From NCBI RefSeq assembly GCF_024502345.1, contig NZ_JALDNN010000001.1: DNA of 64,000 nt, one strand, 5' to 3'. Shown in pieces: positions 20,242 to 39,881 of this stretch; position 1 is the first letter of the stretch, and every line of letters starts with the position of its first letter. Made by a program: the position numbers and the translations under genes. Source of the DNA: Escherichia coli (GTDB lineage Bacteria; Pseudomonadota; Gammaproteobacteria; Enterobacterales; Enterobacteriaceae). Under the pieces are notes generated by a model that was not told the origin of the DNA, searched no databases, and saw only the letters and a program-made list of their open reading frames with translations.

Positions 20242-20290
20242 TGGTGCCCGGACTCGGAATCGAACCAAGGACACGGGGATTTTCAATCCC
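20242..20290 (-). repeat. 49-bp direct repeat of tRNA-Phe 3' end (island att site)
   Basis: Identical to 39806-39854 (tggtgcccggactcggaatcgaaccaaggacacggggattttcaatccc); diverges afterwards. Confidence 0.85.
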
Positions 20291-20567
20291 TTTAAAAGAG
20301 CCCAAACGATCCATCAGCACTAACAGTTTTTTACTGGTTTACCTTGAGAAAAATGTTTAAGTTTGGTTCTTCATGACTTAAGTATTGCTTAAATACGGCG
20401 TTTCGAAGCTACCAGAATCCTACCATTATGAGCCTATGCCCATAGAAGAGAAATTATCTCCCGTTCTCGCGATTCAATGACTAAAAATCAGACGGTGCAG
20501 GCTTTTAGATACTGATATTATATCTTTTGGGTAAAGTATTAATCTCTGTTGAGATAGGCTCTTAGCC

Positions 20568-20906
20568 CTAAAATAGCCGAGCAGCAAACGCCAAAACAAC
20601 AATACTGACATTACCATTAACTGTCGCGATAGTTCTGAGTCGGTCGTCTTTCAGGGTTTTACCGTCAAATGTTGCGATGGTGCGGAGTCGATCGTCTTTC
20701 AGGGTCTTTCCATCAAAGGTAGCGATGGTGCGGAGTCGGTCGTCTTTCAGGGTTTTACCGTCAAAAGTTGCGATGGTTCTGAGCCGGTCGTCTTTCAGGG
20801 TTTTACCGTCAAACGTTGCGATGGTCCTGAGTCGATCATCTTTCAAGGTCTTGCCATCAAAGGTCGCGATAGTCCTGAGTCGATCGTCTTTTATAGTTAC
20901 GCTCAT
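20568..20906 (-). CDS. small repeat protein: 6 x 16-aa repeats (KDDRLRTIATFDGKTL) + C-terminal hydrophobic tail
   Basis: ORF spanning the repeat array, preceded by aggaga RBS; ends ...VNGNVSIVVLAFAARLF. Both strands are open over the repeats; the minus frame is preferred because of the RBS and codon-level conservation. Confidence 0.5.
   Translation of the reverse strand: MSVTIKDDRLRTIATFDGKTLKDDRLRTIATFDGKTLKDDRLRTIATFDGKTLKDDRLRTIATFDGKTLKDDRLRTIATFDGKTLKDDRLRTIATVNGNVSIVVLAFAARLF
20621..20905. repeat. tandem array, 6 x 48 bp imperfect repeats
   Basis: Units gcgatggtgcggagtcgatcgtctttcagggtctttccatcaaaggta and variants read directly; variation is mostly at synonymous positions of the minus-strand frame. 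Confidence 0.85.
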
Positions 20907-21127
20907 AAGCATTCTCCTGTGATACGTCCGTTCAGCACTTTACCATCCAAAATAAAGCACTGGTTTCTGTAAGTTCTGGGCGCTAATCATTTGAATATGC
21001 GTTTAAAATCCATCCAGTTAGCATTAACATTAACCAGCGCTTCATCGATCATAACAGGTCTGATGCAGGTTAAAAGATACAATCTTACCTATAAATTGCG
21101 GTAGCGCATTGCTCTGTTATCTGGCAT

Positions 21128-38158: not shown

Positions 38159-38503
38159 ATAACCTCCTGTGACTGGTGTAAAGAACGTCAGGGTTGCCCC
38201 ATCCCCGGCACGGCGCTGTTAATGGCTGAGTTGATTTTCTGGTGTGGCTAAGGGAATGCTGGTGCCACATGGGATGAATGAAGACGAGAAATACAGCAAA
38301 AACAGGCGTTACGGTCTGCTTCTGGTCTTAAGGGGAAGATTGCCGTTGGGGAAGAGTTCACAGAAATAATATGTGTTTCAGTCGGGTATAATTACATGTG
38401 ATAAGGGCAAAGAGCGTGCTTTGCTAAAATTTGACATGTTGAAGTCCACTCTTTTTAACGATGTCGTTATGGACGACATGGCGAGTCTTGCTTAGATAAT
38501 TAA

Positions 38504-39091
38504 TCAAAATACTGTGACTTTGGACCCACGTTTACCACATTTCGAGCACTTGAGCCGAGTTTTAAGGTCTTCTAGAGTTACTCCCATTGCAACATACTGC
38601 TTAAGGTCGTTCAAAGTAAGGATTGTGGGGAGACGACAAAAAAATCCAGAGGCGCAACATACCAGCATCTCCGAGCCGTTTTTTAACCAGTCCTCAAGAT
38701 TATCGTGCGATCTCGTTAGTCGTTCGATATCCGCTCTCCACTGCTGGATTTCATTACCGTTCCAGTCGATATTTAGCTCGATTTGTTTGGCAACGAACCG
38801 GTGTTTACCTCTGTTAACTGTGGGTTCATAGTCCTTACGTTGATCTTTGATGAGATCAGCCTCATAGAGGAAATCATCGTTTTTGTTGTCGGTATAATCA
38901 AAAATTACCTTAATTAAATCAATATCAACGTTTTGTTTTTTGATGAATAAACCCTGTGTTCCGCTTCCGTTCAAGTCCCGGCTAAAGTTAATGTTGAGAT
39001 GGCGGCGGAGTGAGAAGAAATAGCTGTGGCCGTGCATAGCCAATGCAAGTCTGGCTATGTCATTGCAGTTGTAGGGTGTGTGTGTATCCAT
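38504..39091 (-). CDS. hypothetical protein (195 aa) with C-terminal CxxC-like tail
   Basis: ORF between integrase and att region; ends ...LKCSKCGKRGSKVTVF. Confidence 0.4.
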   Translation of the reverse strand: MDTHTPYNCNDIARLALAMHGHSYFFSLRRHLNINFSRDLNGSGTQGLFIKKQNVDIDLIKVIFDYTDNKNDDFLYEADLIKDQRKDYEPTVNRGKHRFVAKQIELNIDWNGNEIQQWRADIERLTRSHDNLEDWLKNGSEMLVCCASGFFCRLPTILTLNDLKQYVAMGVTLEDLKTRLKCSKCGKRGSKVTVF

Positions 39092-39805
39092 GATGTTACC
39101 TTTAATTCATATTCGGTCGAGAGCGTCAGGAAACTATCCTAATATACCTTTTTTCTACACCAGTATTTGGATCAATTTTCATCCCTTTGGCCTGCTTCTT
39201 GTTGATTAACTCTCAGCGATGTTTGAAATAGGCCATCAGTGGTCAGAATCATTTTTTACTTCCACTTTTTGCTCAGATTTGACCCTAAGGTCTAAGTTCC
39301 AATACGTTTCGCTCAATTACTATCACCCCTGATAAATTATTCTATGATGACGTGGAGGGCGGGGGATTCAGGCAATGTTAAGAAATGAAAGGTTTAAATG
39401 CGAATATTACAGGTGGAGGAGGTGGTGGATACCCCCGACTGACAAGGGGAGTTGATGGCGCTGAGTTCACCCCCTTGCCTGAAGAGGAGTCTCCCCGGTC
39501 TTCCCCCGGGGGGGATGGCAGGTAATTTGTTGTTAAATAAAGTAAATTATGAAATCCCCCATTTCCCCCGTATTCTCTGCTTCATTATGAATAATCTTAG
39601 AGAAAGGAACCGTAAAGGACCGTAGAAAGACCGTAGCTGTGAGGTGAGGGAAGGCACATCAGAGGATGTTGAGGTGTCTAAAAGTAACGAACATCTGCAA
39701 AAATGGTGAAAAATCCAGCAAGAAAATAACGTGTTGCAACGACCAGAAATCTACCGTAGCTAAGAAAGGAAAAAGCCCCGCTTTTCAGCGAGGCCTTATG
39801 AATAT

Positions 39806-39881
39806 TGGTGCCCGGACTCGGAATCGAACCAAGGACACGGGGATTTTCAATCCCCTGCTCTACCGACTGAGCTATCCGGGC
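39806..39881 (-). tRNA. pheV: tRNA-Phe (GAA anticodon)
   Basis: Revcomp reads gcccggatagctcagtcggtagagcaggggattgaaaatccccgtgtccttggttcgattccgagtccgggcacca, a canonical 76-nt tRNA-Phe with CCA end; next to yqgA-speC. Confidence 0.95.

Follow-up and report, generated by a model that had tools for sequence, protein, structure and literature searches.

Introduction

This report concerns a stretch of 64,000 nucleotides of Escherichia coli DNA (RefSeq assembly GCF_024502345.1, contig NZ_JALDNN010000001.1; hereafter the window, at its full length), in which the tRNA-Phe gene pheV appears to be followed by two integrative elements, a 19.5-kb element with defence genes, here called island A, and, beyond it, the beginning of a second one, island B. 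Genomic islands at pheV (GI-pheV) have been surveyed, with direct repeats of 19–23 bp and intP4 (intP4.1–5) as the only conserved gene; elements of the A type are not described there (PMC11537424). From the E. coli pan-genome, 'integrase-only' and 'multiple-integrase' defence islands have been reported, the mobilisation of which is unexplained (Hochhauser et al. 2023, PMC10121019).

Gammaproteobacterial pipolins share a core of piPolB, an att-proximal IntSXT-type recombinase, a second recombinase, DUF2787, WYL and orphan genes, next to a variable defence module in which type I restriction-modification (R-M) is among the exchanged systems. Proteins of Escherichia and Vibrio pipolins are 30–35% identical, and 'piPolB-less, pipolin-like islands' are mentioned in passing as rare (PMC11551731). 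The MGIVchHai6 islands of Vibrio occupy trmE and depend on IncC plasmids for mobilisation; xis, mobI and AcaCD boxes are among their features (PMC4958241).

The pheV locus and its direct repeat

Judged by its sequence, the window represents the speC-yqgA-pheV locus of E. coli. The 3.6 kb flanking island A on the right were 99.8% identical to the E. coli speC-yqgH-yqgA-tRNA-Phe-nupG region, on which basis the tRNA-Phe was assigned to pheV, as the initial annotation, made from the letters of the window alone, had proposed. A single tRNA, tRNA-Phe(GAA) at 39806–39881 on the minus strand, was called in the 64 kb by ARAGORN, with agreement from Rfam. The repeat search returned a perfect direct repeat of 50 nt (100% identity) at 20241–20290 and 39805–39854, with a start-to-start spacing of 19,564 bp, consisting of the 3′ 49 nt of tRNA-Phe (tRNA nt 28–76; 20242–20290 in the left copy) and one flanking T. 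Each half of the repeat occurred exactly twice in the window, against 0.00 occurrences expected from 100 shuffles. The 3′ 49 nt of pheV (39806–39854) constitute the attL copy of this identity block. The features at the two repeat copies are as follows.

39806–39881, minus: pheV, intact tRNA-Phe(GAA) (ARAGORN; Rfam RF00005, 68.3 bits; speC-yqgA flank)
39762–39797, minus: island-A-supplied intrinsic terminator for pheV (stem 39797→39772, then T-run; terminator scan, fold)
20242–20290, minus: partial tRNA-Phe copy, 3′ 49 nt, read as attR of island A and as the tRNA-proximal junction of island B
20198–20231, minus: terminator-like hairpin, assigned to island B and not to native pheV (flank 150/150 identical to strain G3/10)

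The left copy departs from the tRNA sequence at 20291, within the 5′ strand of the anticodon stem; because of this divergence, and since no second tRNA was called, it is a fragment and not a second tRNA gene. The exact 49-bp repeat of the tRNA 3′ end, bracketing a block of genes, that the initial annotation had described was thus recovered, extended by one nucleotide. That annotation had named two outcomes that would speak against its reading, a second complete tRNA gene and relatives lacking the repeats; one tRNA only was present (ARAGORN, Rfam), and relatives carried the same repeats.

A minus-strand hairpin with a T-run follows each tRNA copy (terminator scan, folding). Beside the intact tRNA, the stem (39797→39772) comprises 11 pairs at −17.7 kcal/mol (z −3.85), and beside the partial copy (20231→20208) 10 pairs at −17.6 kcal/mol (z −4.8). 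The terminator beside the intact tRNA differs from that of K-12 pheV, and was kept in 10/10 aligned family members; in the Citrobacter variant, one C-G pair of the stem is replaced by T-A, a compensatory change. Together with about 500 bp beyond it, it is conserved next to tRNA-Phe across seven genera, which agrees with the earlier view that it is supplied by the island. An apparent match of the K-12 pheV terminator to 39765–39805 of the window, obtained with lenient blastn, was dropped, as direct inspection showed different terminators and the extension to be an alignment artefact.

Empty, singly occupied and tandem sites

The order of features downstream of pheV was compared between the window and three E. 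coli genomes.

K-12: pheV without an island, followed by the native terminator and yghD
USMARC-51408: behind intact pheV, an element sharing 97% identity with the backbone in the window, then the 49-nt partial tRNA copy, 150/150 nt of K-12 native flank and yghD
G3/10: intact pheV, no island A, then 150/150 nt identical to window 20092–20241, then a P4-type integrase gene
This window: behind intact pheV, island A, followed by the 49-nt partial tRNA copy, flank of the G3/10 type and the gene of an intact P4-type integrase (18782–20044)

Unoccupied and occupied sites could thus be compared twice, K-12 with USMARC-51408 and G3/10 with the window, the flanks being identical at 150/150 positions in both pairs, and the empty, A-only and B-only configurations of pheV were all found in other genomes. 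USMARC-51408 reads as a textbook integration, with A alone between pheV and yghD. An empty pheV site, which the initial annotation had suggested looking for, is provided by K-12, and site-specific insertion of an acquired element into the 3′ part of the tRNA gene is borne out by the repeat and by these comparisons.

The initial annotation had further taken the hairpin at 20208–20236 for the original pheV terminator and had placed the border with the native chromosome at the partial copy. A terminator-like hairpin does follow that copy, as a single island with native chromosome on its left would predict. The flank to the left, however, shares only 27% ungapped identity with the native flank found at pheV in K-12 and in USMARC-51408, and matches the beginning of the G3/10 P4-type island at 100%; the gene of an intact P4-type integrase is located at 18782–20044, and the native downstream flank of pheV and yghD are both absent from the 64-kb window. 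A single island bordered by native chromosome is hardly tenable on this evidence. The same 150 nt of left flank are 82% identical to the region downstream of pheU in K-12, where the P4-type integrase remnant yjdQ is located.

Because its left flank is identical to G3/10 at 150/150 positions and an intact P4-type integrase gene comes next, the partial tRNA copy is read as the junction of two tandem islands and not as an island/chromosome boundary. Island A accordingly spans 20291–39805 (19,515 bp), and island B runs from 20241 leftwards past the left edge of the window, its distal repeat lying outside. Further degenerate copies of the tRNA 3′ end, sought in the window to locate the distal end of island B, were absent at up to 3 mismatches. 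The tandem arrangement of A and B recurs in strain TUM2820, and one further locus (L025) holds a divergent A variant together with a B-type integrase. We consider it very probable that pheV holds here two independent integrative islands, A and B, in tandem, this estimate referring to the explanation as a whole (tandem islands, integration of A via the 49-nt block, and the inferred roles of its genes). The integration model of the initial annotation was correct for island A, and its left boundary was misread.

Attachment arm, recombinases and helicase of island A

The tRNA-proximal part of island A contains the following features.

39298–39805, minus: conserved non-coding attL arm of island A, with 4 CTACGGT motifs
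38504–39091, minus: 195-aa protein in variable cargo slot 1, which separates attL from the integrase gene (phrog_30162, 252.8 bits, a family without assigned function)
36974–38158, minus: IntA, 394-aa tyrosine integrase (Pfam Arm-DNA-bind_3, Phage_int_M and Phage_integrase)
36563–36919, plus: 118-aa protein with weak similarity to Arm DNA-binding domains (Pfam PF13356, E 0.0023)
34585–36513, plus: Cch-like (DUF927) replicative helicase, 642 aa (Pfam DUF927, 117.5 bits, and Cch HTH_56)
33205–34515, plus: second tyrosine recombinase, 436 aa, intact (Pfam Phage_integrase, 110.7 bits, and weak Arm and central domains)

The attL arm was conserved over 470–540 bp at 75–98% beside tRNA-Phe in 12 loci of 7 genera. 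One CTACGGT motif is located at 39750–39759 and three more at 11-bp spacing in 39605–39637, and all four were unchanged in ten loci of seven genera, also at places with diverged flanks. The hexamer TACGGT reaches a density of 4 in 150 bp, compared with 0.25 per kb expected, and the motifs are candidate arm-type integrase binding sites or iterons. In variable slot 1, the 195-aa protein gave no tblastn match in ten loci of other genera, in which the interval from tRNA to int measures 2.5–6.4 kb, and AREA_C483 carries a restriction endonuclease and a DUF2971 gene there instead.

All catalytic R/K/HxxR/H/Y motifs of IntA were identified by reading of the sequence. The gene lies 1.65 kb from the 3′ end of the tRNA and is co-oriented with tRNA-Phe, and wherever enough flank was available, intA was found downstream of tRNA-Phe on the same strand. 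The initial annotation had proposed running the integrases against P4-type models; on PRK09692, the pheV-proximal IntA scored 28 bits, compared with 246 bits for IntB, the integrase of island B, so that IntA is not a close relative of the P4-type integrases, and IntA and IntB are about 24% identical. Because it is att-proximal and homologous to the att-proximal recombinase of a Vibrio element bearing a family-B polymerase, IntA is considered the probable integrase for tRNA-Phe.

Catalytic motifs were also present in the second recombinase, the full-length open reading frame (ORF) of which is conserved in other genera; it is about 31% identical to IntA. Relatives conserve the 118-aa Arm-like protein at 82–91%, and another allelic type of it stands at about 35%. 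The Cch-like helicase additionally matched the NCBIfam model SCCmec Cch1 (79 bits) and a PHROG family of DNA primases/helicases, and, among PDB entries, 5DGK ('Active helicase') and 8TCH ('Pathogenicity island protein').

Between the second recombinase gene and the divergently oriented operon of small genes lie 490 intergenic bp; a perfect 10-bp palindrome (CCTGAAAGTG N9 CACTTTCAGG) at 33010–33038 in this region could be an operator. Rfam returned no RNA family inside island A.

Small-gene backbone and defence cargo

The remaining part of island A was assigned as follows.

30232–32713, minus: conserved small-gene backbone of six genes (Pfam/RefSeq names), namely
32333–32713, minus: p126
31909–32340, minus: p143
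31434–31862, minus: DUF2787
30911–31375, minus: LRAT/NlpC-P60-like
30693–30932, minus: 79-aa HTH
30232–30618, minus: 128-aa protein with signal peptide
29339–30088, minus: JukA/YaaW-family protein (DUF3944), 249 aa (PADLOC JukA, 242 bits, full length)
28523–29236, minus: HTH-WYL transcriptional regulator, predicted, 237 aa (Pfam HTH_DeoR and WYL, weak; PADLOC WYL, 54 bits)
27123–28482: start of cargo slot 2, a 111-aa gene followed by AT-rich filler
28147–28482, minus: conserved 111-aa gene
27197–28157: AT-rich 960-bp filler, with a 106-aa ORF at 27711–28031 (plus)
21128–27122, minus: complete type I R-M system
25566–27122, minus: hsdM (TIGR00497, 640 bits, cut-off 243)
24361–25569, minus: hsdS (PADLOC Specificity_I, 409 bits, full length)
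21128–24244, minus: hsdR (TIGR00348, 734 bits, cut-off 285)
20568–20912, minus: 114-aa protein with six 16-aa repeats (TLKDDRLRTIATFDGK), the last gene of island A (from the translation)

The type I R-M genes, HTH-WYL regulator, small genes and integrases that the initial annotation had listed were recovered by the profile searches. The conserved backbone of island A amounts to about 11 kb, and its small-gene part was 86–99% identical at the amino acid level across five of the genera, with differing cargo. HsdM, HsdS and HsdR are all present at full length, and the recognition domains of hsdS vary between relatives. The HTH-WYL gene, the HTH and WYL domains of which were detected weakly, is placed upstream of the defence cargo, a position that would fit a BrxR-type regulator. 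For the JukA homologue, relatives carry precomputed Pfam assignments to PF13099 and PF03981; the nearest genes to jukA are 102 and 143 bp away, and some JukA homologues act alone or with other effectors according to a preprint.

In most relatives, a DUF262/GmrSD gene occupies the position of the 960-bp filler. A decayed DUF262 gene was rejected as its origin, since no homology to the DUF262 gene of the relatives was found. Searched against complete E. coli genomes, the full filler matched AREA_C483 alone (99.9%), the annotation there reading hypothetical protein; the first 640 bp of the filler were found, unannotated, in 16 other E. coli genomes. The 114-aa protein is encoded by six head-to-tail 48-bp repeats at 20563–20946 (repeat family D1), and its homologue in MLI023K1 is annotated as a '5-fold beta-flower protein'.

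Distribution and variation of island A

The backbone of island A was found in 124 of 5,426 complete E. coli genomes (about 2%). Island A is present alone at pheV in USMARC-51408 and AREA_C483 and at pheU, between dicD and cadC, in MLI023K1; E. coli GCA_045574885.1 (L032, L033) carries the element at both pheV and pheU with identical IntA. In the pheU copy of the latter, many genes are split, possibly through decay or through errors of assembly. Homologues of IntA that were 84–99% identical were found in Pseudocitrobacter, Kluyvera, Enterobacter, Buttiauxella, Citrobacter and Erwinia. A tRNA-Phe was located upstream of the IntA homologue in 8/10 scanned loci, and in the other two none was found in the upstream sequence available.

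On these sequence comparisons, island A is a discrete mobile or integrative element with phage-defence genes. This bears on the possibility that A and B are modules of one composite GI-pheV, in which the tRNA fragment would be a relic and the 19.5-kb block no longer mobile. Islands of the GI-pheV kind are known to be mosaic and modular (PMC11537424), and no circular form was detected; against this, A was found alone at pheV, at pheU and in other genera without B, B was likewise found alone, the repeats of A are perfect and both of its recombinases are intact. A composite origin is accordingly regarded as improbable, and two separate islands in tandem remain the preferred explanation.

The copy of island A in the window is a recombinant. 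Positions 28158–39881 were about 97.5% identical to USMARC-51408 and MLI023K1, positions 25499–32698 matched AREA_C483 at 96%, and the helicase/recombinase module of AREA_C483 is only 66–69% identical. At least two divergent alleles of the helicase module exist. The best match to the whole of this copy was 96% over 89%.

Beside pheV of E. coli A30 (L001, 18635–20106), about 500 bp of the attL arm of island A were found together with a restriction-endonuclease gene and no integrase; this remnant is an eroded A-type element. In the pheV island region of G3/10 (L008, 10583–12643), a second, divergent copy of the DeoR-LRAT-DUF2787-hyp-hyp module adjoins TIR-domain and ABC-three-component defence genes and IS1, and looks like the remnant of another A-type element deep in a large pheV island.

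Proposed mechanism and order of arrival

The genome comparisons show the products of recombination of the 49-nt block with pheV or pheU, together with the matching empty sites. In the proposed mechanism, an island A attP carrying a copy of the last 49 nt of tRNA-Phe recombined with the tRNA gene, whereby an intact pheV was rebuilt with an island-derived 3′ part and terminator and the former 3′ end was displaced to 20242–20290. IntA would carry out the integration, with its N-terminal arm-binding domain on the CTACGGT repeats and the core inside the 49-nt block; this block extends into the anticodon stem, which would fit a crossover in the anticodon loop and sets it apart from the block of about 23 nt of P4-type islands. 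The Cch-like helicase would replicate the excised circle, the HTH-WYL protein would regulate the downstream defence cargo, and the type I R-M system and the JukA homologue would protect host and element against phage. Transfer between cells would depend on a helper, since no conjugation, relaxase, mating-pair or capsid genes were found in island A, relaxase and Mob proteins having no match in any library searched.

Several points weigh against this account. The choice of IntA over the second recombinase as the enzyme acting on tRNA-Phe is an inference, and no excisionase was identified in island A. The predicted attP junction (…GAGGCCTTATGAATAT + 49 nt + TTTAAAAGAGCCC…) was absent from viral and metagenome contig collections, in which context it should be considered that assemblies rarely capture excised circular forms. 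PADLOC matched neither JukB nor another operon effector in the genes adjoining jukA, and the HTH-WYL protein gave no sequence match to solved structures, for which reasons the WYL regulatory and Juk functions are only inferred.

Island A could alternatively be a phage satellite (P4-like or a PICI) or a decayed prophage, mobilised by packaging in a helper phage. Several backbone proteins match PHROG families without assigned function, the Cch-like helicase resembles the staphylococcal pathogenicity-island protein 8TCH, and defence cargo is typical of satellites. NCBIfam, Pfam, PHROGs and PADLOC, however, gave no capsid, terminase, packaging-redirection, AlpA or P4 primase match in island A, genes for capsid-size redirection or helper derepression were likewise absent from the PHROGs, NCBIfam and Pfam matches, and the DUF2787 gene had no match in 50,697 phage records, so that a satellite or prophage origin is considered very improbable.

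For the sequence of events, A may have entered pheV first and B subsequently the 49-nt partial copy at attR of A, with retention of an attB core of about 23 bp. The final arrangement would be identical, the partial copy holds the full 3′ 23 nt used as repeat by intP4 islands (PMC11537424), and A-only genomes exist. On the other side, at least 15 genomes carry B at 99.5–100% identity, as compared with the 96% over 89% of the best match to the A copy of the window; in 14 of these genomes the aligned stretch stops no more than 4 nt from 20290, a point beyond which the tRNA would continue; an intact pheV beside B without A was verified in G3/10 only. Near-identical copies of B in so many genomes, against the weaker best match for A, suggest that B is the older resident of the lineage, although precise excision of A would equally yield B-only genomes. 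Arrival of A before B is regarded as possible but rather unlikely. Under either order, the tandem of two independent islands would be the same.

Island B and other variable regions of the window

The portion of island B within the window comprises the following.

18782–20044, minus: IntB (intP4), 420-aa P4-type integrase (NCBIfam PRK09692, 246 bits, full length, below the curated cut-off of 434)
1–18781: cargo of island B, with mmuPM, tauABCD, olsF, hemB, ISKpn26, an AIDA-type autotransporter, IS30, an IS3 fragment, isrC sRNA and IS1

The catalytic motifs of IntB are present, and its orthologue is annotated beside pheV in G3/10 and TUM2820. In G3/10, island B is at least 75 kb long. Among the matches listed, the portion in the window was 99.9–100% identical over 92% of its length in 11 E. 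coli genomes, and 15 genomes covered at least 80% of it. From its sequence features, island B is identified as a classical P4-type-integrase GI-pheV in the sense of PMC11537424.

Within its cargo, a block of high GC content (0.59–0.64) at 792–10316, with extra mmuPM, tauABCD, olsF and hemB genes beside an ISKpn26-type transposase, looks like chromosomal DNA captured from an enterobacterium of higher GC content. The Hfq-binding sRNA isrC (Rfam, 140 bits) was located among insertion-sequence fragments at 17025–17147 on the minus strand, about 2.5 kb downstream of the AIDA-type autotransporter gene (11486–14536). On the other side of pheV, a TRAP transporter of the dctPQM type, encoded by three genes and with GC as low as 0.39, was found at 51745–54580 between yggM and hemW; this site is empty in TUM2820, and the insertion is small, variable and unrelated to the pheV islands.

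Significance

As a single instance, the locus is routine, since near-identical copies of both islands are already public and annotated and pheV ranks among the best-known island hotspots of E. coli. It does illustrate cleanly how two integrase families add islands in tandem to a single tRNA gene, with identity blocks of different size within the same tRNA (49 nt vs about 23 nt), and how such accretion misleads boundary calling built on the first repeat plus terminator. Because recent surveys defined GI-pheV by the P4-type integrase, A-type elements fall outside them.

Tentatively, and with somewhat less than even confidence, island A may represent a formally undescribed family of pipolin-related elements of the Enterobacterales, in which a Cch/MCM-like helicase module replaces PolB, which target tRNA-Phe at pheV and pheU, collect defence genes in two cargo slots, and have spread recently over at least seven genera without recognisable transfer genes. 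If this were true, the pipolin core (att-proximal recombinase, orphans, DUF2787, WYL) would be a chassis that runs on different replication modules, which bears on the question whether piPolB is a defining component or one exchangeable replication module among others. A backbone tied to pipolins and devoid of the polymerase would also be a natural comparison for the contribution of the replication module to such islands. The significance would rise if the helicase-bearing, pipolin-related family proved undescribed and its mobilisation were worked out.

Relation to described systems

In descriptive terms, island A belongs with the 'integrase-only' or 'multiple-integrase' E. coli defence islands. 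Like those of PMC10121019, it occupies a tRNA gene at the 3′ part, repeats the tRNA 3′ end directly, has its integrase near the tRNA, carries defence cargo, lacks recognisable transfer genes and is of restricted occurrence (only about 2% of genomes), and it differs from them by the replicative-helicase gene and the conserved backbone of about 11 kb. The main text of PMC10121019 names neither pheV, tRNA-Phe nor yqgA, and for this reason island A was not tied to one of the named hotspots.

With the intP4-bearing GI-pheV, of which island B is an example, island A has the attachment gene in common. It differs in its repeat of 49 nt, which reaches the anticodon stem, compared with 19–23, in an integrase that is not of the intP4 kind (IntA, 28 bits), and in the absence of all of the flu, yee, nan and iuc modules.

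A Cch-type, MCM-like helicase (DUF927 and Cch HTH; PDB 5DGK) beside recombinase genes is also found in staphylococcal SCC, and by this analogy suggests replication after excision. The recombinases of island A are, however, tyrosine recombinases, whereas those of SCC are serine recombinases (Ccr); the target is tRNA-Phe instead of rlmH, island A resides in a Gram-negative host, and the two share nothing else in gene content. A looser likeness links island A to the MGIVchHai6 islands, which combine int with a DUF927 protein, carry type I R-M in some members and have no transfer genes of their own. They differ by the trmE site and by xis, mobI and AcaCD boxes, which were not found here, mobI and AcaCD boxes not having been specifically searched for.

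For the comparison with pipolins, an element of Vibrio proteolyticus with pipolin-like features and a 964-aa PF03175 family-B polymerase was used, which has homologues of three island A genes: its recombinase was 33% identical to IntA over the full length (E 1e-57), a 142-aa orphan 30% to p143 (E 1e-20), and the DUF2787 counterpart 38% (E 7e-27). These values were placed in the range of 30–35% given for Escherichia and Vibrio pipolins. DUF2787 alone is not diagnostic, since it is also present on large plasmids, and one DUF2787 homologue (P0012) was uninformative, its island being unrelated and encoding RadC as well as a reverse transcriptase. A search for pipolins by DNA similarity among E. 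coli genomes returned only matches of at least 90%, all of them members of the A family.

No ORF of island A matched a PolB model (NCBIfam, Pfam, PHROGs, PADLOC), and no unassigned stretch could accommodate a protein of at least 800 aa; lacking the polymerase, island A is by definition not a pipolin. It carries the Cch/DUF927 helicase in the equivalent position in place of piPolB, and its target is tRNA-Phe and not tRNA-Leu. Shared with pipolins are the tRNA site and its direct repeats, a pair of tyrosine recombinases of which one is close to att, the DUF2787, WYL and orphan genes of the core, and the bimodular layout of conserved core and variable defence cargo. Based on the V. proteolyticus element and on the description in PMC11551731, and not on an E. 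coli pipolin, pipolins appear to be the nearest characterised relatives of island A.

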